Source: a virus. Taken from it: DNA of 28,473 nt. Location: UHGV virus genome UHGV-0135791; one strand, 5' to 3'. The notes under the pieces were generated by a model. It saw only the letters and a list, made by a program, of their open reading frames with translations. It did not search any database and had not been told where the DNA came from. A program made the translations under genes and the position numbers. This document shows, piece by piece, positions 119 to 28,473 of this stretch; within the stretch, counting starts at the first letter, position 1, and the number at the start of each line of letters is the position of its first letter.

Positions 119-147
119 TTGCACGCTGAGATAGAATAGGCTACTAT
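119..147 (+). promoter_or_regulatory. sigma70-like early promoter, TTGCAC-N17-TACTAT
   Basis: -35 TTGCAC 119-124, 17-nt spacer, -10 TACTAT 142-147. The block AATAGGCTACTATTCA (135-150) recurs nearly identically in two minus-strand promoters. Confidence 0.45.
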
Positions 148-178
148 TCATTTACACGAACGAGAGGAGAGACAGAAG

Positions 179-5387: not shown

Positions 5388-5432
5388 TAGACGCGTAGGG
5401 CGCGTCTGATGCGCTCTGATGGTCAGACGCAT
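5388..5432 (+). promoter_or_regulatory. paired hairpins and TCTGATG direct repeat upstream of TerS
   Basis: AGACGCG-TAGGG-CGCGTCT hairpin (5389-5407), then TGCGCTCTGA-TGG-TCAGACGCA with a TCTGATG direct repeat; possible -10 TATAAT at 5377-5382. Confidence 0.3.
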
Positions 5433-5447
5433 ATGCAAGGGGATTCT

Positions 5448-5993
5448 ATGAAGCTGAAACTCAAGCAGCCATCACCAGAGGTGGTGAAAGCAGCACATGA
5501 AGAAGCTGTTAGCGCAAACCGTCGCCGAAAACGGCCGCGCGGTAAACAGAGCCTTTATCAATCATCCCGTAATTCCGCCGCGTTGTGGGACCCGGACTAT
5601 TGCGACGCGTTAATCGAGTTCTTCGACCGCACGTCGTGGGAGCTTGTGCCTACGTCTAAGGGTGACGAACGCCCACTGATTCAGGATAAACCCCCATCAC
5701 TGGCCCGCTTCGCCCTGCACATCGGCGTCACTATCCCGATTATTAAGCTGTGGCTGCGTGAGATTCCGGCGTTTGCCGAAGCCTATGAAACCGCTCAGGC
5801 GCTGGAAGAGGCCTATTTCACTGAGACGGGAGCGGCAGGTATCTCTGCTACGTTTGCTGCCGCTAAACTAGGCCTTAGCAAAGAGAAACCCGTTGAATCC
5901 ACCGAAGAGACAGCACCGACTGAGATTGTGTTCACCGTAGCAGAGCCTGTAGGTAAAATAGTAACAACGAACATGGGCGAGGTAGCGGAATGA
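5448..5993 (+). CDS. terminase small subunit (putative)
   Basis: ATG 5448 after AAGGGGA; HTH-like segment PSLARFALHIGVTIPIIKLWLREIPAFAEAYETAQ; stop overlaps the TerL start. Confidence 0.65.
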   Translation: MKLKLKQPSPEVVKAAHEEAVSANRRRKRPRGKQSLYQSSRNSAALWDPDYCDALIEFFDRTSWELVPTSKGDERPLIQDKPPSLARFALHIGVTIPIIKLWLREIPAFAEAYETAQALEEAYFTETGAAGISATFAAAKLGLSKEKPVESTEETAPTEIVFTVAEPVGKIVTTNMGEVAE

Positions 5994-7240
5994 GTATTCA
6001 GCTATCCGCCCCTCAGGCGCTGTTCCTGAACTGTGAGAACAAATATAAGGCCTACGTCGGCGGCTTCGGCAGCGGCAAGACGTTTGTCGGCTGTCTGGAC
6101 CTGCTTACATTCATGCTTAAGCACCCCGGTACGCGCCTCGGTTACTTCGGCCCTACCTACCCGGCTATCCGTGACATCTTCTATCCAACGTTCGAGGAAG
6201 CGGCTAACCTCCTGGGCCTTGATGTTCTGGTTAAATCCGGCGACAAAGAGGTCGTCGTTACGCGAGGTAAGACGGTAATCGGAACAGTAATCTGCCGCTC
6301 GATGGATAACCCCGGCTCTATCGTCGGTTTCAAAATCGCGGCTGCGGTCGTGGATGAACTGGACGTACTGAGCCGTGAGAAAGCTGAGCTGGCGTGGAAC
6401 AAAATCGTAGCCCGTATGCGTCTGGTTATTCCTGGCGTAACCAACCACATCTCCGTCACCACGACGCCGGAAGGGTTCAAGTTCGTATACGCCAAATTCA
6501 AAGAGAACCCGACGCCGAGTTACTCGATGGTCCAGGCCTCAACTCACGAGAACGCGAGATTCCTGCCGCCGGATTATATCAGCTCGCTGACCGAGACCTA
6601 CCCGGCGCAGTTGATTAACGCTTATCTGAACGGGGAGTTCGTCAACCTTACTTCCGGCAGCGTGTATTACGCCTACGACCGCCGTAAGCACCGCAGCAAA
6701 GAGACAATCCAACCCGGCGACACGCTGTACATCGGGCAGGACTTCAACGTTACGAAGAACGCAAGCGCCGTGTATGTGCAACGTAAAGACGGTTGGCACG
6801 CGGTAGCAGAACTGAAAGGCCTGTTCGATACGCCTGACACCGTGAGGGTGATTACTGAGAAGTGGAAGTCGCAAGGCCATCGCATCGTCGTGTACCCGGA
6901 CGCCAGCGGCAAGAACCGAAAGACCAACTCGGCGTCAATCTCTGACATCGCTTTACTCCAGCAGGCTGGTTTCGATGTGCGGGCTAAATCCGCCAACCCG
7001 CCGGTTAAAGACCGTGTTTTAGCCGTGAATGCTGCGCTGGAAAAAGGTAAGCTGTGGGTTAACGACCACTTATGCCCGGAGATAGCCAAGACGCTGGAGC
7101 AACAGGCGTATGACGACAACGGCGAGCCAGTTAAAGACGGCATCATCGACCATATGGCGGATGCTCTCGGCTATCCTGTAGTTTACGAGATGCCGGTGGT
7201 TAAACCAGTAATCAACATCCCGGTGACTTTCGCACTTTAA
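5990..7240 (+). CDS. terminase large subunit
   Basis: Walker A GGFGSGKT and Walker B-like AAVVDELD; 416 aa; ATGA coupling with TerS. Confidence 0.9.
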   Translation: MSIQLSAPQALFLNCENKYKAYVGGFGSGKTFVGCLDLLTFMLKHPGTRLGYFGPTYPAIRDIFYPTFEEAANLLGLDVLVKSGDKEVVVTRGKTVIGTVICRSMDNPGSIVGFKIAAAVVDELDVLSREKAELAWNKIVARMRLVIPGVTNHISVTTTPEGFKFVYAKFKENPTPSYSMVQASTHENARFLPPDYISSLTETYPAQLINAYLNGEFVNLTSGSVYYAYDRRKHRSKETIQPGDTLYIGQDFNVTKNASAVYVQRKDGWHAVAELKGLFDTPDTVRVITEKWKSQGHRIVVYPDASGKNRKTNSASISDIALLQQAGFDVRAKSANPPVKDRVLAVNAALEKGKLWVNDHLCPEIAKTLEQQAYDDNGEPVKDGIIDHMADALGYPVVYEMPVVKPVINIPVTFAL

Positions 7241-10311: not shown

Positions 10312-10342
10312 AAGGCCCCGTTATGGGGCCTTAGTTTTATTT
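10312..10342. terminator. bidirectional rho-independent terminator
   Basis: AAGGCCCC-GTTAT-GGGGCCTT hairpin with T-rich flanks on both strands, between convergent genes. Confidence 0.7.
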
Positions 10343-10858
10343 AAATCGCGCTGGCATTAGCACCATAAATGCAGTGTTTGAAAACGATATTTTGCATCCT
10401 CTGGTTTGGTCCTGGAAATCGAAACGAGCAATTTCATTTTTGTACGCCTTAGAAATCTTGTGCGCGTCTGCCAAGTAGGGCATGGCGAATCCTATGCTAT
10501 CAACTGCCCCCGGCGTGATGTGCGCCACACGTCGCCAGTCAGGAAATTTTCCGTCTACAACATCCACCGGAAGTGTACATATAAGCGCACAACTATCATC
10601 ATAGAAAGAAACACTGCTGATGTCATGGTCTACTTCCGCGTAGTTAAATTTAGAAGGCTCTCTCCCTTTTATGTCTATGAGAACCCCATTCTCAACGTTT
10701 GTCTTAACGTTGTCGCAGAACAATCTACGACCGTCCGTAGACACTATCAATCCTTCCGGGTCTATGTAAAAAGCATTAAAATAATAGCGCACATCATTTT
10801 TAGCTCTGCATATTTTTGCCCCTATATACGCAGGGAAAGTAATTACTGTAGTAACCAT
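10337..10858 (-). CDS. truncated DnaN (beta sliding clamp) homolog, domain II-like, 173 aa
   Basis: Segments [38 protein letters not shown] and C-terminal [11 protein letters not shown] parallel E. coli DnaN [45 protein letters not shown] and AAYVVMPMRL (from memory). Own promoter, GAGGAGGAG RBS, terminator; AT-rich relative to flanks. Confidence 0.55.
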   Translation of the reverse strand: [173 protein letters not shown]

Positions 10859-10886
10859 TTTAACTCCTCCTCGTTTCGATAACTGA

Positions 10887-10915
10887 ATAGTACCCTATTA
10901 TGTTGGTGTCTGCAA
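10887..10915 (-). promoter_or_regulatory. leftward sigma70-like promoter, TTGCAG-N17-TACTAT
   Basis: Read on the minus strand: TTGCAG acaccaacataataggg TACTAT tca; -10 region identical to promoters at 119-147 and 19703-19731. Confidence 0.5.
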
Positions 10916-12516: not shown

Positions 12517-13560
12517 ATGGCAATTACCACTATCGGCGATATCGTAACTGGCAACATCCCGGTCCTGGCGTCTTACATGACCGAGGACCCGGTGGAAAAA
12601 ACCGCGTTCTTCCAGTCCGGCATTCTGACCCCGACCCCGTACGCTGCCGAGATTGCTCGCGGCCCGTCCAACATCGCCAACATCCCTTTCTGGAAAGCGA
12701 TTGATACATCTATCGAGCCGAACTACTCGAACGATGTATACCAGGATATCGCCACCCCGCGTAACGTTCAGACCGGTGAGATGATGGCGCGCGTTGCGTA
12801 CCTGAACGAAGGTTTTGGCCAGGCCGACCTTACCGTCGAACTGACCAGCCAGAACCCGCTGCAATCCGTGGCTTCCCGTCTGGATAACTTCTGGCAGCGC
12901 CAGGCACAACGCCGTCTGATTGCTACTGCGCTCGGTCTGTACAACGACAACGTAGCCGCTACCGATGAATACCATACGCAGAACGATATGGTTGTCGACG
13001 TGTCTGCTTCTCTGGGCTTCGACGCAGGCGCATTCATCGACGCTACCCAGACTATGGGCGATGCTCTGATGGGCAACGGTGGCGAGGTGCTGGGTGCTAT
13101 CGCTATGCACAGCTTCGTTTATGCGCAGGCGCGTAAGCAGCAGCTTATTGACTTCATCAAAGACGCTGACAACGACACCTTGTTCGCCACCTACCAGGGC
13201 TACCGTGTGATTGTTGACGACAGCATGACCGTAGTCGGCTCCGGCGGCAGCCGCAAGTTCATCTCCATCATCTTCGGCAACGGCGCTATCGGTTACGGTG
13301 AAGGCAACCCGTCCAACCCGCTGGAATACGAGCGCGAAGCGTCTCGCGGTAATGGTGGTGGTGTAGAAACCCTGTGGTCCCGTAAGACCTGGCTGCTGCA
13401 CCCACTGGGCTACAGCTTCACCAGCGCGGTAATCACCGGCAACGGCACCGAGACTGTCGCACGTTCTGCGTCCTGGCAGGACCTGGCGAACGCCTCCAAC
13501 TGGAGCCGTGTGGTTGAGCGTAAGCATGTACCGATTGCCTTCCTGGTAACTGGTGCTTAA
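12517..13560 (+). CDS. major capsid protein (putative)
   Basis: 347 aa after the scaffold; RBS GAGGAAA; followed by a strong terminator, as expected for a highly expressed structural gene. Confidence 0.75.
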   Translation: MAITTIGDIVTGNIPVLASYMTEDPVEKTAFFQSGILTPTPYAAEIARGPSNIANIPFWKAIDTSIEPNYSNDVYQDIATPRNVQTGEMMARVAYLNEGFGQADLTVELTSQNPLQSVASRLDNFWQRQAQRRLIATALGLYNDNVAATDEYHTQNDMVVDVSASLGFDAGAFIDATQTMGDALMGNGGEVLGAIAMHSFVYAQARKQQLIDFIKDADNDTLFATYQGYRVIVDDSMTVVGSGGSRKFISIIFGNGAIGYGEGNPSNPLEYEREASRGNGGGVETLWSRKTWLLHPLGYSFTSAVITGNGTETVARSASWQDLANASNWSRVVERKHVPIAFLVTGA

Positions 13561-16474: not shown

Positions 16475-16887
16475 TGGGCTACTTTGAGGACTTAACCAAA
16501 GCGTTCGATGTGCCGCTGGTAGCCTTCGGAACCACCAACGGCATCAAGGTTGCGCTTGAAAATACTGACGCGCCGACGTCAACCGATACACCGTATCTGG
16601 CAAGTTACATGTTGCTTGCGGATACCGAGCAGGCTGACTTATTCTTCACCGAGCAACGCTCTGGTATCTATCAGGTAGACATTAACTACGCATCGGTGAA
16701 AGGTAGCGCACCAATCAATAAAATGGCAGACTTACTTAACACGGCGTTTAAAGCAGGTAAGTCATTTTCACGTAACGACATCTGCGCCGAGGTTCAATCG
16801 GTTAGCCTGGGGCCGCTGATTGTAGAAAACGGATGGGCCAAACGACCATTGTCAATTAACTTTATTGCATTCACCAAGAGGCTGTGA
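16471..16887 (+). CDS. tail terminator/completion protein (putative), 138 aa
   Basis: Position directly before the major tail protein gene; coupled start. Confidence 0.6.
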   Translation: MMGYFEDLTKAFDVPLVAFGTTNGIKVALENTDAPTSTDTPYLASYMLLADTEQADLFFTEQRSGIYQVDINYASVKGSAPINKMADLLNTAFKAGKSFSRNDICAEVQSVSLGPLIVENGWAKRPLSINFIAFTKRL

Positions 16888-18056
16888 ATATGGCTACAAC
16901 TCCTTTTAAGGGCGCGACTACCGCGCAATTCTATGTGGCGGAAACTACCCCCGGCGTAACCCCGGACAACCCGGTCTGGTCGCCGTTGCGCAACACCGGC
17001 GGTGTTCCCGCCATTACTCGCGACACGCTGACCTCCAACGAACTGGACGGCAGCCGTGAAACTACGTCCATCCGCACCGGTAACAAACAGGTTAGCGGTG
17101 AATATGCTATCGAGCTTAGCTCTAAAAGTCAGGATGACTGGCTGGCGGGTGCTTTAGGCTCTACGTGGCAGTCCGGTGCATCGCTGTCCGGGCTGTCGAT
17201 TACCGTCGCACCGGCGGGCAAGACGTTCACCCGCGCCGAAGGTAGCTTTATTTCTGATGGCGTTGAAGTAGGCGACCTGATTGCGTTCACCGACTTAACG
17301 GGCGATAACGCTAAACCGTTTATCGTCACTGCGGTAACGGCTACGGTTGTTACCGGCGCGGGTATCCAACACCCCCTGACCGTCGAGACAAAAACCAGTA
17401 AGGCCAAAACCGGCGACAAACTGGAAACCGGTAGCCAGTGTAAGACGTTCTCTATTCTCACCTGGTACAAAGGCCAGTGCGGCGGGACTGATGCGTACAC
17501 GTTAACCAAAGGCGTGGAAGTTTCTGGTTTTACCGTTGAGCAGGCCGTTAACGCGATGGTAACGGGCAGCTTCCCGTTCATCGGGCGCAGCCAGGAGATT
17601 CTCACCACGGCGCCGTCTGGTTCTGACTTCTCCTCGGTTACGTTTGGTGATGAGCCGTTCTCCTCGGTTGACGTTTCTGTGTTCGACGGCTCTACTCCGT
17701 TGCGTTGCGATAGCCTGACCATCACCAATGATAACAGCGCGTCTGCACAGTTCGAACTTGGTAACACTAACGTAGCATTTGTGGAACGTAGCCGTGCAGC
17801 TAACACCTTCTCCATCTCGGGTAAGCTGTATGACATGGCTATGATTCAGAAGTTTATCAACGAGCAGCAGGTAGAGATTAACTCTATTCTGGCGGGGGTA
17901 AACGGCGCTATGTCTTTCAGTTTGAAACGCGCGGAACTCACGGCGGTTACACCAGAGATTGGCGGACCTGAGTCAATCACTCAGTCCATTGAAGGCCAGG
18001 CTACGGGTAACCAGTACCAGTCGTCTATTGTTATCCAGCGCATCACCTACGCATAA
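16884..18056 (+). CDS. major tail protein (putative), 390 aa
   Basis: Large Thr/Ser/Gly-rich protein after the tail completion genes, followed by a strong terminator. Confidence 0.7.
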   Translation: MNMATTPFKGATTAQFYVAETTPGVTPDNPVWSPLRNTGGVPAITRDTLTSNELDGSRETTSIRTGNKQVSGEYAIELSSKSQDDWLAGALGSTWQSGASLSGLSITVAPAGKTFTRAEGSFISDGVEVGDLIAFTDLTGDNAKPFIVTAVTATVVTGAGIQHPLTVETKTSKAKTGDKLETGSQCKTFSILTWYKGQCGGTDAYTLTKGVEVSGFTVEQAVNAMVTGSFPFIGRSQEILTTAPSGSDFSSVTFGDEPFSSVDVSVFDGSTPLRCDSLTITNDNSASAQFELGNTNVAFVERSRAANTFSISGKLYDMAMIQKFINEQQVEINSILAGVNGAMSFSLKRAELTAVTPEIGGPESITQSIEGQATGNQYQSSIVIQRITYA

Positions 18057-18060
18057 AACT

Positions 18061-18085
18061 AAGGCCCCTTTCGGGGCCTTTTCTT
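18061..18085. terminator. bidirectional rho-independent terminator
   Basis: AAGGCCCC-TTTC-GGGGCCTT hairpin followed by TTCTT; lies between convergent genes. Confidence 0.7.
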
Positions 18086-18314
18086 ACTCATCAATATTAC
18101 TCCTGTACTCCCGTAACTTCTCCAGGCTTTCGATTGCTTCTGCCAAGTCGGTTCCCGTGTCTTTGTGCCCGCGAAGGCCCATACACAATAGCTTCTTCAA
18201 CGCGTGCTGTAGCGCAGGGTCGCGTATATCGAAGGCGCGGAGAACATCGTAAACGTCTACTGTCATAGTGCTGCCGTGAATGTTTGTCATTGTGCGGTTG
18301 TATTTTGAAGTCAT
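18084..18314 (-). CDS. DUF3310-like small phage protein, 76 aa
   Basis: Motif PALQHALKKLLCMGLRGHKD...DLAEAIESLEKL matches the A.KYL.R.G.K...DL.KA..YL pattern recalled for DUF3310. Confidence 0.5.
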   Translation of the reverse strand: MTSKYNRTMTNIHGSTMTVDVYDVLRAFDIRDPALQHALKKLLCMGLRGHKDTGTDLAEAIESLEKLREYRSNIDE

Positions 18315-19441
18315 CCCAGCATCTCCGGTGAAATAGTTAAACGTGCGACCTCGCCGTATTCAGCGCTATAAGTAATTACGTTTGCACTACGGCCTGACAT
18401 CCATCCGCCGCGCGAGGCGTAGGCGTCTTTAGCCGCTAAGGTGCGGTGTTGCTCAACAACCATGTTACGGCTTTCTACAATCTTCTGGTGGTGCAGGTGA
18501 CCCACGTGGGCATAACTGTAGACACTCTCGCCGAACGCTTTACGGAACTTGGCAATCATTACTGGCTCAATAGCGTCGAATCGTGCTTTATGCCCGTGAT
18601 GGAAGAACAGTGTCGTTTTGCCGTGTTGCACCATCTTGTAAACATCCGGTGACGTATCGACAATCACTCGGCTGTCGTTTGAGTATAAAGTCGTGAACAT
18701 TTCCGCCAGCCATACAGACCCTACAGGGTCGTGGTTCCCCTGCACGATAAGCAAGCGAACGGTTTTATGTTTAACCAGCGCCATATCTACAACACGGCGG
18801 ACCATACGAATCATGTAGCGTACAAGTTTCTGATAGCGCGTGTCAGCGTCCAACACATGACGTGACTCAGGTGTAACCGCGTCCAGACTATCGAAGTGTG
18901 CGAAGTCGCCCAGCAGGTTAATAACTCCTGTCCCGGCATCCGGTGCTTTCTGGAATGCCGCATCGAACCAGCGGGAGAACAGGTCTTCCGCAATCTTCAT
19001 GTCCCAGTCGTCGCCGCTCTCGTCGGCCCATGCCAGCATACCGAGATGGAAATCGGATACCGTGTAAAGATTGAGTAGCTTGTCGTCGCGTTTAGCGCGA
19101 ACGGCTTTAACAGGTGCAACGGGTGTAATCTCTGACCTCATGCCTTCGATTACGGCTTTCATCAACTCTATCTGACGTTCGGCGTCAGTATCGGTCTTAA
19201 CCCATTGCAACTTAGTGTTGCCGAACTCGTCCACAAGTGACGACGTGCCTTTAATTTTGTAGCCGTCCGGGACAAGGTGGCTAACGTCGCGCCCGTGGCC
19301 TACGCCTTTCTTAGCCAGCTTCGCTTTACGGATGCGAATAACGCGGTCTGAGATGCCATATTTACGGGCTATATCGATAGTTTTAACTCCGGCGTTCAAT
19401 TCTTCCTGTAACTGTTCGTCGGTTATTTTCTTCCCGGCCAT
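18311..19441 (-). CDS. N-terminal HTH domain fused to a calcineurin/Mre11-like metallophosphoesterase, 376 aa
   Basis: HTH-like LNAGVKTIDIARKYGISDRVIRIRK; phosphoesterase motifs VSDFHLG, LLGDFAHFD, QGNHD, FHHGH and HVGHLHH in canonical order. Confidence 0.75.
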   Translation of the reverse strand: MAGKKITDEQLQEELNAGVKTIDIARKYGISDRVIRIRKAKLAKKGVGHGRDVSHLVPDGYKIKGTSSLVDEFGNTKLQWVKTDTDAERQIELMKAVIEGMRSEITPVAPVKAVRAKRDDKLLNLYTVSDFHLGMLAWADESGDDWDMKIAEDLFSRWFDAAFQKAPDAGTGVINLLGDFAHFDSLDAVTPESRHVLDADTRYQKLVRYMIRMVRRVVDMALVKHKTVRLLIVQGNHDPVGSVWLAEMFTTLYSNDSRVIVDTSPDVYKMVQHGKTTLFFHHGHKARFDAIEPVMIAKFRKAFGESVYSYAHVGHLHHQKIVESRNMVVEQHRTLAAKDAYASRGGWMSGRSANVITYSAEYGEVARLTISPEMLG

Positions 19442-19479
19442 GCTTACCTCCTCGTGTTTAGGATTTGTCCTATACTAGC

Positions 19480-19671
19480 TCACTTCTCTTTGACATTCGA
19501 GTTGCACGCCCAGATTAAGATAAATACCCACGGCAGCAGAATCCAACCAAGAAACAGATTGGCCATGAATATCGCCAGCTTTGCTTTATGGTTGCGGAAA
19601 TAGGCAACTAAAAAAGGCGTAAAGTACGCGAGCAGTGCAAACAGGATTAAGGAAACTGGTAAACTGGACAT
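19480..19671 (-). CDS. superinfection immunity (Imm-like) membrane protein, 63 aa
   Basis: Two TMDs with pattern FLVAYFRNHKAKLAIFMANLFLGWILLPWVFILIWA, resembling the Imm_superinfect family (from memory); first gene after the leftward promoter. Confidence 0.55.
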   Translation of the reverse strand: MSSLPVSLILFALLAYFTPFLVAYFRNHKAKLAIFMANLFLGWILLPWVFILIWACNSNVKEK

Positions 19672-19702
19672 TTTAAACCCCCTTCATTGTTGGTGTAAGT
19701 GA

Positions 19703-19731
19703 ATAGTACCCTATTATATTGGGGTGCGCAA
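19703..19731 (-). promoter_or_regulatory. leftward sigma70-like promoter, TTGCGC-N17-TACTAT
   Basis: Minus strand reads TTGCGC accccaatataataggg TACTAT tca; shares the AATAGGGTACTATTCA block. Confidence 0.5.
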
Positions 19732-19838
19732 GTAATGTGATAGAATAATTTTGCGCCTAGTGTCGCACACGAAAAGCGGGTGGTTCCCGCCTGGCGCAAC
19801 ACCATCAACCAGTAACCTCTTAACCAAAGGATTAAAGA

Positions 19839-20255
19839 ATGAAACTTTCTGATTTTTATTTCGAAGAGAAAGCACTGGTAGGTAAGAAGATGCCGATTCT
19901 CCTGCCGAATGGTGAAGACTCAGGGGAGTGGCTTAACGTTGTAAGCCCTGATGCGGATGCCGCCGTTAAAGCGGGGCGTGCTTTCATTATTGCGTACCGT
20001 CGCGGGTTGGCGCGTTTCGAAGAACTGGAAAAAGCCGCCAAAGAATCCGGCGACTATACTGAATATAACCTGGCTGTTAACGAGCTGGCGGAAGACCTCA
20101 ACCGGCAACTTGCAGCAGAAGTCGTAAACGGCTGGAGCTTTGATGAGCCTTTCTCTAAGGAAGCGTTTAACAAGTTGCTCGACCAGTTCAAGGCATTAGG
20201 CACACAGGTAGCCGCGTTCCATAACGCTGAGCGCAAAGCATTACAGGAAAAGTAG
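19839..20255 (+). CDS. tail assembly chaperone (lambda G-like)
   Basis: 138 aa acidic protein just upstream of the tape measure gene; ends ...CAG GAA AAG TAG with the -1 frame open from 20231. Confidence 0.6.
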   Translation: MKLSDFYFEEKALVGKKMPILLPNGEDSGEWLNVVSPDADAAVKAGRAFIIAYRRGLARFEELEKAAKESGDYTEYNLAVNELAEDLNRQLAAEVVNGWSFDEPFSKEAFNKLLDQFKALGTQVAAFHNAERKALQEK

Positions 20256-20287: not shown

Positions 20288-20620
20288 GTGGATAAGCATA
20301 AAATCAGAGAGTTTGATTCTATAGCTGACGGACACGAACAGGCGCTTATCGCAATGGGTGTAATCGATAAGAAAAAACGTGCAGCGCGACGGGGTGGGCC
20401 AGAATGCCCACCCCTTTTTATATCCACCTTTGAGACGTATTGCGACATTAAGTTTACGCGACACGTGCGCGAGGACGCTGTAGTATTGTTTGCAAGAGAA
20501 TCCGTTACGTGGCAAGACCTGAAAGCCTATCTCGATGTTACGCAAAAGCAGCTTAGCCTGTTCGAGATAGACATTATCATGGGCTTAGAAGCAATCTTTG
20601 AAGGTAGAAATCATGGCTGA
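20288..20620 (+). CDS. tail assembly chaperone T-like segment, probably made as a G-T fusion by -1 frameshift
   Basis: Track ORF (GTG start, no clear RBS) lies in the -1 frame relative to the G-like gene and overlaps the TMP start. Confidence 0.4.
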   Translation: MDKHKIREFDSIADGHEQALIAMGVIDKKKRAARRGGPECPPLFISTFETYCDIKFTRHVREDAVVLFARESVTWQDLKAYLDVTQKQLSLFEIDIIMGLEAIFEGRNHG

Positions 20621-22895
20621 TACCGCTAGTTTGATAGTACGAGTATCATCGACCGGCGTCGATAAAACCACATCACAACTGAACGGGCTTACCAAAGCCG
20701 CAGGTGCTGCAGCTGCTGCCGTCGTCAGTCTGGAAACCGCTAAGCAGGTGTTCAGCGCGCTGGTAGACTCCCAGCGCAACTTCGATAAGCTGAACTCCGG
20801 CCTAATCACAATGACCGGGAGTGCTGAGAACGCGGCTAAGGCTTTCAGCGTCCTGCAACAGTTCGCAAAAGAAACCCCGTACGGGCTTAACCAAGCGGTG
20901 GAAGGCTTTACTAAGCTGGTGGCCCTTGGCCTGAACCCAAGCAAAGAGGCGTTAATCTCCTACGGCAACACTGCCGCGGCGATGGGCAAAGACCTTAACC
21001 AGATGATTGAGGCAGTTGCCGACGCCAGTACATTTGAATTTGAGCGACTGAAAGAGTTCGGTATCAAGTCTTCTCAACAGGCGGATACTGTTTCGTTCAC
21101 GTTCCGTGGCGTAACGACCACGGTTAAGAAGAACTCCGAAGAGATTCAGAAATACCTTCTGAACATCGGTAATACCGATTTCGCAGGGGCGATGGAAACG
21201 CGTTCGAAAACCCTTGACGGGCAGTTATCCAGCCTCGCGGACTCCTTCGACGGCCTTGTACTTGCGGTGGCGCAATCAGGTTTCGGTGACGCGGTGGGTG
21301 AACAAGCAGCAACAGCGGAAGACGCTATCACGGCCCTCACCGACGCCATCGCGTCTAATGAGATAGCCGCCACGCTCCAGGATTGGGTGACACTGTTCAA
21401 TGAATCGTTCAAGTTTATTTCTGATGCCTTAAACGACCTGGCATACGATACCGGGGACAAATCCGCAGATATGTCAGACTCGCTGGGGACTATCCCGGAC
21501 GCTATCCGTGAGTGGTTGCCTGATATACAGCAGACATTCCACGAGGTTATTGCGTGGTTCCAGCGCATTGACGATTACGCCGTAGCGCTTGGCCAGACCC
21601 TCGCCGACGTGTTTGACCCGAGCAAAACGGCAGCGCTAACATTTAAAAAACTGACCGCAGAAGCCGACGCCGCATACGACGCCAGCATAAAACGCGCAGA
21701 GGCCGAATCACAGGCCATTACCAACAGGTCTAAGCAGCGTAAGAAAGAAATTGAGGAACAGCGCAAGCAGTATGACGAGCGCAAGAAGCAAGAAATCGAC
21801 CTAGCCAGCCTTGTTAATGGGAAGGGCGGAAAGGGTGGAACTGGCGGAGCCGGAAATACTAACGACAAAGACGCGAAAGCCGCCGCTAAGAAGGCGGAGC
21901 AATTGCGCAAACAGGCCCAGGATTACCTCGACACTTTGGCCCGTCAGAACAACGACGAGTTAAAGGCTATCGACGCGCAGGAACAGCAGAAACTGGCTAA
22001 AGCAAAAGAGTTTTACAGTCAGGGCGCGTTGTCTCTGAAAGAGTACGAGCAAGCAAAAACGGCTATCGTCCTTGAAGCAGGGCAAAAACGGCAAGATGAA
22101 CTGGATAAACGCCAGAAAGAAGCCCAGGAAAAGCAGCAGAAAGGCGATGACTTCATGGCCCAGATTATGGGTCAGAACGCCACTGAGCTTGAGCTTCTCG
22201 ATATCCAGGAACAGCAGAAACTGGCTGTCGCCGATAAATACCGCGAACAGGGTCTGATTAGTGAGAAGCAGTATCAGGCTGCGCTTAACGCCATCAACGA
22301 GCAGTACGCCACGAAGCGCGCCGACGCAACGGCAACCGCCTTTGGTAACATGGCTTCAAACATCGGGTCTGCGTTGGGTGAGGCTTCTGGCGCATACAAG
22401 GCATTCGCTATCGTACAGGCCACTATCGCCACGTACACCGCGGCTATTGAGGCGTACAAGTCCACGGCGGCTATCCCTGTAGTTGGCCCGTTCCTGGCTC
22501 CCGTAGCCGCTGCTGCTGCCGTTGGGGCGGGTATGGCGCAGATTTCCGCTATCAGGTCTGCGCGTGAACAGGGTGGGCAGTTATCCGCCGGGCAGGCTTC
22601 TACTATCGCCGAACGCGGTAAACCAGAAGTTATCATGCCCGCTGGTGCGTCACGTGTACGCACTGCGCAGCAGATGAAAGAAATTATGGGGCAAAACGGC
22701 GGCAGTACCGGGTCAGCCAATATCAGCATTATAAATAACACCAGCGCACAAATTGGTAATACCAGTGTTGAACAGGACGAAGAAGGCCGCTTGCGTATCA
22801 TTATAGAGGAGCAAGTTGCTGCTTCGCTGCAGAATAGTAACAGCAAAATATCGAAAGCTAGGAAGGCTACAAGAAACGCACCCGGCTTTAAGTAA
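20613..22895 (+). CDS. tail tape measure protein
   Basis: About 760 aa, Ala/Gln/Lys-rich with internal repeats (QEQQKLAKAKEFYSQG / QEQQKLAVADKYREQG) and a Gly-rich stretch. Confidence 0.85.
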   Translation: MADTASLIVRVSSTGVDKTTSQLNGLTKAAGAAAAAVVSLETAKQVFSALVDSQRNFDKLNSGLITMTGSAENAAKAFSVLQQFAKETPYGLNQAVEGFTKLVALGLNPSKEALISYGNTAAAMGKDLNQMIEAVADASTFEFERLKEFGIKSSQQADTVSFTFRGVTTTVKKNSEEIQKYLLNIGNTDFAGAMETRSKTLDGQLSSLADSFDGLVLAVAQSGFGDAVGEQAATAEDAITALTDAIASNEIAATLQDWVTLFNESFKFISDALNDLAYDTGDKSADMSDSLGTIPDAIREWLPDIQQTFHEVIAWFQRIDDYAVALGQTLADVFDPSKTAALTFKKLTAEADAAYDASIKRAEAESQAITNRSKQRKKEIEEQRKQYDERKKQEIDLASLVNGKGGKGGTGGAGNTNDKDAKAAAKKAEQLRKQAQDYLDTLARQNNDELKAIDAQEQQKLAKAKEFYSQGALSLKEYEQAKTAIVLEAGQKRQDELDKRQKEAQEKQQKGDDFMAQIMGQNATELELLDIQEQQKLAVADKYREQGLISEKQYQAALNAINEQYATKRADATATAFGNMASNIGSALGEASGAYKAFAIVQATIATYTAAIEAYKSTAAIPVVGPFLAPVAAAAAVGAGMAQISAIRSAREQGGQLSAGQASTIAERGKPEVIMPAGASRVRTAQQMKEIMGQNGGSTGSANISIINNTSAQIGNTSVEQDEEGRLRIIIEEQVAASLQNSNSKISKARKATRNAPGFK

Positions 22896-22938: not shown

Positions 22939-23589
22939 CTAACGACCCTCTTTTATCAAGGCGATAACGCGGTCGAACATACCTTCCCTTATCGCCTCTA
23001 TCTCACATCTTCTTGATTCCGCCGCCCTTATCTTTTCAGCAATGTAAGCATCTAGCGCTTCTTCCTGAGTTTCAAAACGTCCTAGATTAATAGTTTTTTT
23101 ATCACAGCTCACTGAGGCTTTAAATTTACCTCTAGATTCTTCATAAAAAACACCTGTAGGTGTTCCACTATTTTTCTTCTCCTTTAGGAAAACATTCAAC
23201 CATTTCGGGATGAAAATGCAAGTGGTAGGGCTGTATACCTTATTAATACCAGAGAATATGTCCTTATCTAGCTCCCATCCCTCCACATAATTACAAAGCC
23301 ACCATCTACGGAAGGACATAAACCTTTGCCACCCTGGCCACACAGTTACATCCCGGTACGCAGGCCTTTTGTTTTTATACTCGGTGTCCACGCAACGTTG
23401 GATCATCCCTCGCCATGTAGCGTACGCCAGACACGTCTCACGGCTGCCGTTTATCTTGGGGCTAACCACATAATCGGCGTCATTTATGCCAAAACCACAT
23501 ATAGTTGCACGCTTAGTTTTGCTGCTTTTGTTCGCAGGATAATTCGCACGCAGCCACATGCTCTTGGCTACTTTTTCGGTTGGCATCAT
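22939..23589 (-). CDS. HNH homing endonuclease with C-terminal AP2-like DNA-binding domain
   Basis: N-terminal pattern ATWRGMIQRC...AYRDVTVWPGWQRFMSFRRWW...ELDKDI; C-terminal GVFYEESRGKFKASVSCDKKTINLGRFETQEEALDAYIAEKIR is AP2-like. RBS AGGAGA before the ATGATG start; AT-rich. Confidence 0.65.
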   Translation of the reverse strand: MMPTEKVAKSMWLRANYPANKSSKTKRATICGFGINDADYVVSPKINGSRETCLAYATWRGMIQRCVDTEYKNKRPAYRDVTVWPGWQRFMSFRRWWLCNYVEGWELDKDIFSGINKVYSPTTCIFIPKWLNVFLKEKKNSGTPTGVFYEESRGKFKASVSCDKKTINLGRFETQEEALDAYIAEKIRAAESRRCEIEAIREGMFDRVIALIKEGR

Positions 23590-23624
23590 GTTAGTATCTC
23601 CTAAACTAATAGGAGTATCTTGCC

Positions 23625-24125
23625 ATGTCTTCTTTGAAATTTCCAGCAAGTTTAAAGCCAGTGGTGTCAAAAGGCTACTCGATGACCAGACGCAACAACG
23701 TCTGGAGTGTAGATTTAGCTGGCGGCGGTGTACGTCAGGGGCGCGACACGTATTACGACGTGTTCCCGATAAGCGTAACCCTGATTACCTCAGCGCTAGG
23801 GCGTCAGGCGTTTCTGTCGTTCCTCGAAAAAGTCGATGGCGGTGCGTCAAGTTTCTGGATGGCGCACGACTTCGGCATGGGTATCGAGGATTATCAGGTA
23901 ACGATCACGTCCACCATCGCGGAGTCTACCGAAGATGGAATTAACTGGACGATTACTTTCACGGCAACCGCTGAGAAATCGCCGTTCCAGAACCTTGAGA
24001 ACCAGTGCCTGATTAACAATCTGCCGGATTTGTATGGTTGCTATGGCGACGGGCTGGGATGTTTCCTTAAAGCCTACGGAACCGCACAATCAACGTTTCC
24101 ACGAATTTGGGACCCGATGCAATGA
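23625..24125 (+). CDS. minor/distal tail protein (putative), 166 aa
   Basis: First gene after the TMP/HNH region; AGGAG 9 nt upstream. Confidence 0.6.
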   Translation: MSSLKFPASLKPVVSKGYSMTRRNNVWSVDLAGGGVRQGRDTYYDVFPISVTLITSALGRQAFLSFLEKVDGGASSFWMAHDFGMGIEDYQVTITSTIAESTEDGINWTITFTATAEKSPFQNLENQCLINNLPDLYGCYGDGLGCFLKAYGTAQSTFPRIWDPMQ

Positions 24126-27557: not shown

Positions 27558-28473
27558 ATGTCAAGCGGATGCGGTGACGTTTTAAGCCTGGCGGATTTAC
27601 AGACCGCCAAGAAACACCAGATTTTCGAAGCTGAAGTCATCACTGGCAAATCCGGCGGGGTTGCTGGTGGTGCAGATATTGATTACGCTACTAATCCGGT
27701 AACTGGGCAGATGCAGAAAACGCTTCCAGCCGTGTTGCGCGATGCTGGTTTTTCTCCTGTATCGTGGGACTTTTCCACCGGCGGTACGTTAACAGTTAAT
27801 GACCGCGACAAAGTTGTTTACGACCCGGTAAGCCTGACTTGGTACTCATATGCAGGTACGTTGCCGGTTACGGTTCCCGCGAGTTTTAACCCCGTCGGTA
27901 ACGCAAACTGGAAGCCGCAGACGGACCCAAATTTGCGTAATGATTTGGCGTCAAGTACCGCCGGTTTAGGGGCTTCACTGGTGTCTTTTTCCAACGGTAA
28001 CACCGTTGGAACATTATCTGACGCGGACGGTGCCAAGAACATAGGCAGCGGCGAAAGGAGTTTGCTTGCACGTAACAATGATGTTAAGCATTCTGGCGAC
28101 TTTTCTACCCTGCAAGCCGCGGTGGATGCGTCGCTACCGAAAAATGACTTACTTATTTCCCCTGGCGAATATACTGAAAAAGTTACTATTGGTAACGCAC
28201 AGTTAAAAGGCGTTGGTGGGGCTGTAGTACTAAAAACACCAACAGGCTTTACAAACACTGTCCAGGTTAATTCATCTACACCCCATTGGCAATTCCGCCA
28301 TAGTTGTGGTTTTGCTATAGATGGTTCTGGAACAACCGGGAGCGTAGGTATTAGTTTTGACCCGTCAGACCAATATTCTGGCCGACATAATTTTAGTGAT
28401 TTATACATCCACAACATCAACAAGGCCATTCAGAAGCCTTCCGGGAACATCGGTAATACATGGAGAAATATTG
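27558..28473 (+). CDS. tailspike/tail fiber, 5' partial (runs off window end)
   Basis: RBS AAAGAGGA then ATG 27558; open to the window end (305 codons); from about residue 180 the sequence looks like the start of a pectate-lyase-type beta-helix. Confidence 0.7.
   Translation, partial: MSSGCGDVLSLADLQTAKKHQIFEAEVITGKSGGVAGGADIDYATNPVTGQMQKTLPAVLRDAGFSPVSWDFSTGGTLTVNDRDKVVYDPVSLTWYSYAGTLPVTVPASFNPVGNANWKPQTDPNLRNDLASSTAGLGASLVSFSNGNTVGTLSDADGAKNIGSGERSLLARNNDVKHSGDFSTLQAAVDASLPKNDLLISPGEYTEKVTIGNAQLKGVGGAVVLKTPTGFTNTVQVNSSTPHWQFRHSCGFAIDGSGTTGSVGISFDPSDQYSGRHNFSDLYIHNINKAIQKPSGNIGNTWRNI

Follow-up and report, generated by a model that had tools for sequence, protein, structure and literature searches.

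In the present study, we analysed the viral genome UHGV-0135791, a stretch of 28,473 nucleotides (nt; hereafter the window), and focused on a three-gene minus-strand cassette (18084-19671) flanked by the tail tube gene and the genes of the tail assembly chaperones. The cassette encodes, in the order of reading, an Imm-like membrane protein (gene 1), a metallophosphoesterase with an N-terminal helix-turn-helix (HTH) domain (gene 2) and a small protein of 76 residues (gene 3, p76). Judged from its sequence, it is one compact minus-strand operon that is conserved across the subfamily Guernseyvirinae. The phosphoesterase gene was constant in the related loci, and the positions on both sides of it held different genes in different phages. 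We consider it slightly better than an even chance that the cassette is a self-contained, non-structural sigma-70 operon, which supplies an envelope exclusion factor, a DNA-tethered phosphoesterase and a swappable accessory protein.

According to this reading, the host sigma-70 RNA polymerase would read the cassette antisense between the tail tube and chaperone genes. Transcription would start approximately 25 nt upstream of gene 1, at a promoter block common to two runs of small open reading frames (ORFs) and another antisense gene, and would stop at a shared hairpin. The Imm-like two-helix inner-membrane protein at position 1 would most likely block the DNA entry of a second phage (superinfection exclusion), and in other phages an unrelated membrane-anchored or signal-peptide protein takes its place. 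The phosphoesterase at position 2, with an intact two-metal active site, would be tethered to nucleic acid by its N-terminal HTH domain; it would most likely act as a nuclease or phosphodiesterase on DNA ends, in phage DNA metabolism or in host DNA breakdown. Position 3 would hold a swappable cytoplasmic helper, which is SaV-like here and elsewhere a split polynucleotide kinase-phosphatase, an HNH endonuclease or a Rha/Ant protein.

Operon anatomy and the repeated promoter block

The region 17900-19900 matched 313 phage records in a megablast search, and the closest were the Escherichia phages Bas74, ZCEC5, phage 26 and K1ind1, with approximately 90% DNA identity; all four belong to Kagunavirus or its close relatives. 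The window comes from a Kagunavirus-like phage of the Guernseyvirinae, and its gene map (Table 1) agrees with this assignment. An earlier note on the window had described three minus-strand ORFs at 18084-19671, with the major tail gene on one side and the tail chaperones on the other, and the ORF listing returned the same three genes. The note had also regarded the cassette as a transcription unit separate from the structural genes, which agreed with the promoter and the terminator predicted for it. A purine-rich ribosome-binding site preceded gene 1 and, separately, gene 2. The stop codon of gene 2 and the start codon of gene 3 shared four nt (ATGA, 18311-18314), and gene 3 appears to be translationally coupled to gene 2.

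The terminator scan scored the G+C-rich hairpin between gene 3 and the tail tube gene on both strands, as expected from the bidirectional terminator that the note had placed there. The folding energy was -15.4 kcal/mol on the plus strand and -18.6 kcal/mol on the minus strand, with z values of -4.2 and -4.8 relative to shuffled sequence. The hairpin is predicted to end the tail tube transcript on the plus strand and the cassette transcript on the minus strand. It also formed the cassette boundary in K1ind1 and Bas74 despite the different adjoining cargo, and its loop was inverted in Bas74.

The promoter of the cassette was located by motif searches, an alignment of three copies and a weight-matrix scan. 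The predicted sigma-70-like promoter consisted of a -35 hexamer TTGCGC (19731-19726), a 17-nt spacer and a -10 hexamer TACTAT (19708-19703), followed by a conserved transcript start. Two further copies of the block were present in the window, one 5' of a run of small plus-strand ORFs and the other 5' of an antisense RusA-like gene. The cassette promoter had been called near-identical to the sequence at 119-147, which the note had assumed to be an early promoter. The likeness was real, but its degree was overstated, as 21 of 29 positions were identical between that span and 19731-19703. The adjacent 22-mer that overlapped this span was identical at 20 of 22 positions, and the match was strongest from the -10 hexamer onward. 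The weight matrix was trained on the three window copies, and their own scores of 51-55 bits (55 for the cassette copy) are therefore circular; the maximum in shuffled sequence was 14.4 bits. As an independent check of the matrix, the complete Bas74 genome contained exactly four sites, which scored 47-52 bits. Two of them preceded runs of small plus-strand ORFs (36741-36780 and 38180-38219, both on the plus strand), and two preceded antisense genes in the head and tail modules. The cassette promoter block scored 40-56 bits in every Kagunavirus-type locus. The equivalent promoter of Jerseyvirus occupied the same place with a different sequence (TTGCAT-N17-TATTAT), and a third clade carried TTGCAC-N17 followed by TACTAT or TAGTAT.

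It was also observed that the conservation of the 40-nt block extended over the spacer and the first bases of the transcript, well past the requirements of sigma-70 recognition, and that the spacer contained a second -10-like hexamer (TATAAT or TAGAAT). The repeats could be the binding site of a regulator, or they could be mere copies spread by recombination.

The cassette proteins and their variation across related loci

To compare the cassette with its relatives, 70 IMG/VR loci were collected with the phosphoesterase as bait, and seven reference proteins were mapped onto them; 45 of the loci retained the chaperone flank. The phosphoesterase was present in the same orientation in 45 of these 45 loci, and in all 43 loci whose stored DNA reached that far it lay between the chaperone and tube genes. 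With an occurrence in every one of the 45 loci and a family spanning over 2,000 phage records, the phosphoesterase resembles a core gene more than an accessory one. The term accessory module, used in the earlier note, thus fitted the outer positions 1 and 3 but not the constant, core-like enzyme between them. The comparison supported the view that these two positions behave as swappable accessory slots. A constant enzyme flanked by two variable positions suggests that a core DNA-metabolism function has turned into a landing pad for accessory genes.

Gene 1 was described as an Imm-like protein with two transmembrane segments, which the profile searches confirmed. It matched the Pfam family Imm_superinfect (PF14373) with 47.3 bits against a cut-off of 27.9 and PHROG 1039, 'immunity to superinfection', with an E value of 1e-22; its hydrophobic segments comprised residues 1-26 and 31-58. 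At the sequence level, gene 1 is thus a member of the T4 Imm family. T4 Imm itself acts in a myovirus against the injection of T-even DNA, together with Sp. Gene 1 resembled T4 Imm in its above-cut-off profile match, its small size and its two transmembrane helices, and shared a PHROG with it (PMC9409062), whereas the T4 protein is longer (83 amino acids, aa; PMC9409062) than gene 1 (63 aa). Position 1 was Imm-like in 29 of the 45 loci and was occupied by unrelated proteins of approximately 97-120 aa in the other 16. Inspection by eye revealed an N-terminal signal peptide in most of these substitutes, and one type had a single membrane anchor. Every position-1 occupant examined had a membrane-spanning segment or, judged by eye, a signal peptide, the usual signature of superinfection exclusion. 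Only one type of substitute matched a PHROG confidently, namely PHROG 14165, to which no function is assigned there. This family has a length of approximately 108 aa, and an example is found in one IMG/VR locus (L011, 4606-4935, plus strand). In the 16 loci in which Imm was replaced, the adjoining chaperone gene was a divergent allele with approximately 44-60% identity.

The fusion of an HTH domain and a metallophosphoesterase, proposed for gene 2, was upheld by a match to PHROG 704 (E 4e-162; labelled 'DNA repair exonuclease'), by invariant catalytic motifs and by the predicted fold. The Pfam matches remained below the cut-off, with 22.1 against 27 bits for Metallophos and 17.1 against 21.5 bits for Metallophos_2. 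Gene 2 belongs to a divergent family of its own within the calcineurin-like metallophosphoesterase superfamily. An exhaustive search returned 4,549 clusters at 50% identity, nearly all of 370-420 aa and with the same layout. In 39 diverse homologs with 30-50% identity, D130, H132, G178-D179, N236-H237, H282, G314 and H317 were invariant, and H284 and H315 were conserved in at least 90%. All five metal-binding motifs (DxH, GD, GNH[DE], H and GHxH) were intact in gene 2. The AlphaFold model, with a predicted local distance difference test (pLDDT) score of 90, consisted of a three-helix N-terminal domain, a flexible linker, a beta-hairpin with a helix, and the phosphoesterase core. The top Foldseek matches in the PDB were the PolD DP1 exonuclease, Mre11, Rv0805 and the glycerophosphodiesterase GpdQ, with E values of approximately 1e-8 to 1e-6 and template modelling (TM) scores of approximately 0.4. 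Overall, 135 PDB matches had an E value of at most 0.001, and those listed were metallophosphoesterases throughout, with a probability of 1.0. The low E values combined with a TM score near 0.4 indicated that the fold was certain and the subfamily was not. A profile search with the N-terminus showed a weak, non-significant likeness to LuxR/GerE/sigma region 4 HTH domains (E 0.07-0.3).

Several assignments of gene 2 to a known subfamily were tried and rejected. An identity with Mre11/SbcD was not supported by sequence, as the profile search against the PDB gave E values of 0.33-0.74 and hhalign against E. coli SbcD gave a probability of 3%; a sequence search of the PDB with gene 2 was marginal at best. 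For the lambda Ser/Thr phosphatase NinI and for E. coli CpdA, the hhalign probabilities were below 4%. No gene for a partner ATPase of the Rad50/SbcC type was found in the cassette or in the 45 related loci. Compared with Mre11/SbcD and PolD DP1, gene 2 has the same fold and the same five metal-binding motifs, and DP1 and Mre11 were among its best structural matches; it differs in the absence of significant sequence kinship, in having no evident capping domain and in its added N-terminal HTH domain.

The genomic company of the gene 2 homologs differed outside the subfamily. In T1 and IsaakIselin, the homolog closed the helicase/Dam block directly before the lysis genes, and in the Dhillonvirus StarDew it followed the lysis genes; in all three phages it was co-oriented with these neighbours and lay with the replication or lysis modules, not with the tail modules. 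The substrate is the weakest link in our reading. A nuclease acting on DNA is favoured because of the DNA-binding domain, the company kept by the homologs and the PHROG label. As a separate observation, the phosphoesterase allele of some Jerseyvirus genomes, such as the Salmonella phage horsemountain (L007, 2501-3655), was only 54% identical to that of the window, other Jerseyvirus genomes carried an allele with 83-86% identity at the same position, and Dhillonvirus carried a 74% allele in a different genomic context. These values suggest repeated exchange of the gene between phage groups.

The description of gene 3 as DUF3310-like held at the level of the fold and failed at the level of the Pfam profile. 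Neither p76 nor 21 relatives had any Pfam match at E <= 10, PF11753 included, and Pfam domains were absent from the best 120 of more than 4,300 p76 relatives found by a profile search of 5.8 billion proteins. The protein matched PHROG 2452, and its family of more than 4,300 clusters included members of 140-220 aa with the p76 domain at the C-terminus. The AlphaFold model (pLDDT 87) showed a beta-hairpin and three helices. Compared with solved structures in the PDB, nothing was obtained below E = 1. Among the predicted viral structures of BFVD, the first 28 matches had 20-57% identity and seemingly represented the family of p76 itself; 17 of the 28 had no name in the table used. The next matches were SaV-like, DUF3310 and nucleotide kinase entries with TM scores of 0.53-0.70 and 17-26% identity, and those named SaV-like or DUF3310 matched modestly (TM 0.53-0.69, E 0.01-0.04, 18-26% identity). 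Folds of the SaV-like/DUF3310-like kind included nucleotide kinase and polynucleotide kinase entries, and the closer p76-type matches included DNA ligase and phosphodiesterase entries. Based on these models, p76 is predicted to be a small cytoplasmic protein with a SaV-like/DUF3310-like fold. SaV of the lactococcal phage p2 is linked to the abortive-infection system AbiV. As a small phage protein with a fold-level match, p76 resembles SaV and the DUF3310 family; it differs in escaping the Pfam profile and in its low identity to the fold matches.

Relatives of p76 in BS5 and MA13 had replication or RNA polymerase genes as neighbours, that of Rogue1 lay among small ORFs of the left arm, and phage AV104 carried an identical p76. 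Some relatives bore 'terminase' labels, which we rejected since these were mislabelled small proteins in non-packaging regions. A further idea, that p76 is a remnant of the ATP-binding gene of K1ind1, was dismissed because the two showed no similarity. The replacement in K1ind1 was clean, with its limits at the phosphoesterase stop codon on one side and the terminator hairpin on the other, and it left no residual similarity. Across the 45 loci, position 3 held p76 alone in 14, a Pnkp-like end-healing pair of a HAD_PNKP phosphatase and a P-loop protein in 16, p76 with an HNH endonuclease in 5, p76 with a Rha/KilAC (Rha/Ant) protein in 5, and no gene in 5. The occupants with matches to known families (HAD_PNKP, HNH and Rha/KilAC) were nucleic-acid-related.

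Cassettes of the same kind have been deposited for other Guernseyvirinae, namely Bas74 (genes 0021-0023), K1ind1 (gp19-22), K1B4 (genes 041-045) and Jerseyvirus horsemountain (genes 31-35). They share with the window the position between the tail tube and the chaperones, the orientation, the Imm and phosphoesterase genes and the terminator hairpin, and the phosphoesterase protein of K1ind1 was 94% identical to that of the window. They differ in the cargo that follows the phosphoesterase, which is HAD-PNKP with a P-loop protein in K1ind1 and K1B4, and HNH, p76 and Rha/Ant in Jerseyvirus. Another comparison is offered by morons and by antisense superinfection-exclusion genes such as cor of T1, N15 and phi80, which likewise form a promoter-to-terminator unit among late genes and encode an envelope protein with a presumed role in blocking other phages. 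In T1, the antisense cor gene abuts a terminator after the tail genes, in parallel to the cassette. The lambda morons lom and bor are comparable as independent units near tail genes. Unlike these, the cassette contains three genes, carries one conserved enzyme in every relative and has a G+C content similar to that of its flanks (0.50-0.51 against 0.52). Of the marks of a moron, its own promoter and terminator were recognized at the sequence level, and an atypical base composition and a presence in some relatives only were not observed.

Proposed function, timing and alternative explanations

Several points weigh against our reading. Promoter similarity is the sole feature that suggests early expression, and the RNA sequencing (RNA-seq) of K1B4 placed the Imm gene in a 'late' class, which is poorly resolved as described below (PMC12645636). 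The repeated promoter block was not recovered in the genome of Jerseyvirus horsemountain, which had one copy only. A special conservation of the promoter within Kagunavirus was considered and rejected; the entire intergenic region was approximately 96% conserved, so that the promoter is not singled out by conservation. The G+C content of the cassette equals that of its flanks and thus gives no sign of a recent foreign origin. T4 Imm is, to our knowledge, the only member of this family to have been characterised. Its target is the DNA injection of T-even phages, and carrying its function over to a siphovirus that binds O-antigen or capsule would be an extrapolation. The case for a nuclease is weak, given the non-significant SbcD/Mre11 comparisons, the TM score of approximately 0.4 and the missing Rad50/SbcC-like partner. 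A PADLOC scan of the three cassette proteins found no link to a defence system, none of the three had a match in NCBIfam, and no experimental work on the phosphoesterase or p76 was found in the literature. The interpretation in the earlier note, an early module for superinfection exclusion, host takeover or anti-defence, was broadly reasonable as a whole and is partly supported by these results.

Expression late or throughout infection, instead of early, is an unlikely alternative that nevertheless carries appreciable weight. In that case, the Imm-like protein would have its role near the time of lysis, for instance by keeping released progeny from losing their DNA to doomed cells, and replicated or packaged DNA would be the target of the phosphoesterase. 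The K1B4 study is consistent with this alternative, since the Imm gene fell into the latest-peaking class together with two methylases and the DNA polymerase, and the tail genes were 'middle' (PMC12645636); an ordinary-looking sigma-70 promoter could also fire at any time. However, these classes were poorly resolved, with a latent period of 30 min, sampling to 120 min, a 'late' class beyond 100 min and a multiplicity of infection of 100 (PMC12645636), and the supplement of that study contains a gene table without per-gene expression values. According to this gene table, the four named 'late' genes are all minus-strand and non-structural, and those other than the Imm gene are minus-strand genes of the replication module, suggesting that the class reflects strand or module and not true lateness. 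The promoter block is, in addition, common to the runs of small ORFs typical of early regions. The K1B4 data do not settle early against late timing. As the Imm gene belonged to another class than the flanking tail genes, the cassette does not appear to be co-regulated with its tail neighbours.

The other alternatives concern the enzyme. We regard it as decidedly unlikely that the phosphoesterase and its position-3 partner form a counter-defence based on nucleic-acid end repair, in which the enzyme, like the metallophosphoesterase domain of bacterial Pnkp, would clear 2',3'-cyclic or 3'-phosphate ends, and the repair of tRNA or DNA after cleavage by host nucleases would be completed or regulated by the split kinase-phosphatase or by the SaV-like protein. 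The HAD_PNKP phosphatase and the P-loop protein directly followed the phosphoesterase in 16 of the 45 loci, the fold matches of p76 included the kinase and ligase entries mentioned above, and gene 3 appears coupled to gene 2, all of which would suit such a partnership. On the other hand, the cassette is without a ligase, an HTH domain is better suited to DNA than to tRNA, no polynucleotide kinase adjoins the enzyme in T1, IsaakIselin or StarDew, and no defence-related family was matched by PADLOC. A breakdown of immune signalling nucleotides (cyclic mono-, di- or oligonucleotides) by the phosphoesterase, which would disarm CBASS, Pycsar, Thoeris or type III CRISPR, is very unlikely. Rv0805, a cyclic-nucleotide phosphodiesterase, and GpdQ were among the best structural matches, but the matches to the nucleases DP1 and Mre11 were at least as good; CpdA of E. 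coli gave a non-significant comparison, and a DNA-binding domain has no obvious role in an enzyme acting on soluble nucleotides. The Kagunavirus phages of the BASEL collection also showed no unusual resistance to the tested defences (PMC11990801). Finally, it seems highly improbable that gene 2 acts mainly as a transcription factor, or as a protein phosphatase at promoters or RNA polymerase, that switches gene classes and might bind the repeated promoter block. The weak likeness of its N-terminal domain to LuxR/GerE/sigma region 4 and the conservation of the 40-nt block well past the -35 and -10 hexamers would be consistent with such a role, but the HTH similarity was non-significant, as was the comparison with the lambda Ser/Thr phosphatase, and the gene 2 family is common in phages without the block.

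A bolder extension of our reading, which we consider quite unlikely, is that Guernseyvirinae use the locus as a fixed site at which host-interaction genes are exchanged ('hot-swap'). In such a site, the DNA-tethered phosphoesterase and the end-processing partner present at position 3, be it the SaV-like protein or the split Pnkp, could repair or mask phage nucleic acids against host nucleases, and unrelated envelope proteins that shut out competing phages could take turns at position 1. If this were true, the HTH phosphoesterase family would represent a new type of enzyme for counter-defence or DNA processing.

As an arrangement, the cassette is a conserved, already annotated accessory-gene arrangement of a known phage subfamily. 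Hundreds of public Kagunavirus and Jerseyvirus genomes already contain it in annotated form, and its occurrence in the window adds little. The HTH phosphoesterase and p76 are, in turn, very large phage families whose functions are assigned here by prediction only. Members of Kagunavirus, among them Bas74 and CM001, can be obtained or have served in synthetic-biology work (PMC11990801); thus both families could be studied directly. The three-slot layout also shows phage engineers which positions tolerate replacement.

Predicted leader RNA and other features around the cassette

The coordinates of the features are listed in Table 1.

Table 1. Features of the window, with predicted elements marked as such.
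Feature	Position	Strand	Remarks
Second copy of the promoter block (predicted)	119-158	+	5' of a run of small plus-strand ORFs
Terminase	5409-7240	+	
Third copy of the promoter block (predicted)	10876-10915	-	Head region, 5' of the antisense RusA-like gene 10337-10858
Major head protein	12517-13560	+	
Tail tube gene	16884-18056	+	Phage_tube_2 protein
Predicted terminator, G+C-rich hairpin AAGGCCCC-TTTC-GGGGCCTT	18061-18080	both	Terminator scan and RNA fold
Gene 3 (p76), 76 aa	18084-18314	-	Predicted SaV-like/DUF3310-like fold; variable slot
Gene 2, HTH and metallophosphoesterase, 376 aa	18311-19441	-	Constant core of the cassette
Shine-Dalgarno sequence GAGGAGG	19447-19453	-	5' of gene 2; read from the sequence
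Gene 1, Imm-like membrane protein, 63 aa	19480-19671	-	Variable envelope slot
Cassette promoter block (predicted)	19692-19731	-	Motif searches, three-copy alignment and weight-matrix scan
Predicted extended -10 promoter TGaTAGAAT	19737-19745	+	Back-to-back with the cassette promoter, facing the chaperone gene
int-alpA-like structured RNA, three helices (predicted)	19750-19814	+	Rfam RF02996; neighbour of the cassette, not part of it
Tail assembly chaperones, two genes	19839-20255 and 20288-20620	+	
Tape measure	20598-22895	+	

An Rfam scan of the whole window yielded one match, to the int-alpA RNA (RF02996), with 36.7 bits against a gathering score of 35.8. It lay upstream of the chaperone start codon, with the cassette promoter on its other side. 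The scores of Bas74, horsemountain and five other loci were below the gathering cut-off. The structure was assessed on 15 sequences from three clades. Pairing was found in 87% of the cells, compared with 33-57% when the partners were slid, and four pairs changed on both sides. The covariation score was 0.239 compared with 0.109 in shuffles, and none of 500 shuffles reached 0.239. The three-helix structure predicted for the leader is thus supported by covariation. Since G-U pairs were frequent, the plus strand is favoured as the functional one. A model built from the leader sequences found one copy each in the window, Bas74 and horsemountain, always 5' of the chaperone gene. These three matches were expected, because the window and close relatives of Bas74 and horsemountain were in the training alignment; the informative part was that no further copy appeared in the window, the two complete genomes or 16 other loci. 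The same model found no copy in T1-like or Dhillonvirus loci. The usual context of int-alpA RNA is near integrase or alpA genes. The leader resembles it in the three-helix layout and the conserved joining nucleotides, whereas it stands 5' of a tail chaperone gene in a virulent phage and is without the U-rich tail of the Rfam consensus.

Upstream of the leader, the TGnTAnnnT positions were invariant in the 15 sequences of the three clades and other promoter positions varied, a pattern that suggests an extended -10 promoter. Its predicted start falls on the first leader helix. A separate promoter is therefore probable for the tail genes downstream of the cassette, and the RNA would be the structured 5' leader of the chaperone/tape-measure transcript, suggesting that the tail genes are read as two units. 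Possible roles of the leader include mRNA stabilisation, translation control and terminator read-through.

Other antisense genes were observed in the window. The RusA-like gene, which encodes 173 aa and matched PHROG 3007 without a Pfam match, lies in a patch of 0.40 G+C in the head region behind the predicted promoter block shared with the cassette; in Bas74, this slot holds a different 67-aa gene. Directly after the tape-measure gene, an antisense HNH endonuclease gene (22939-23670, minus strand; PHROG 953) occupies a patch of 0.44 G+C and probably represents a homing endonuclease that was inserted into the tail module. A minus-strand ORF of 203 aa (27818-28429), without a PHROG match, lies near the window end where a plus-strand tailspike gene is expected and may be spurious.

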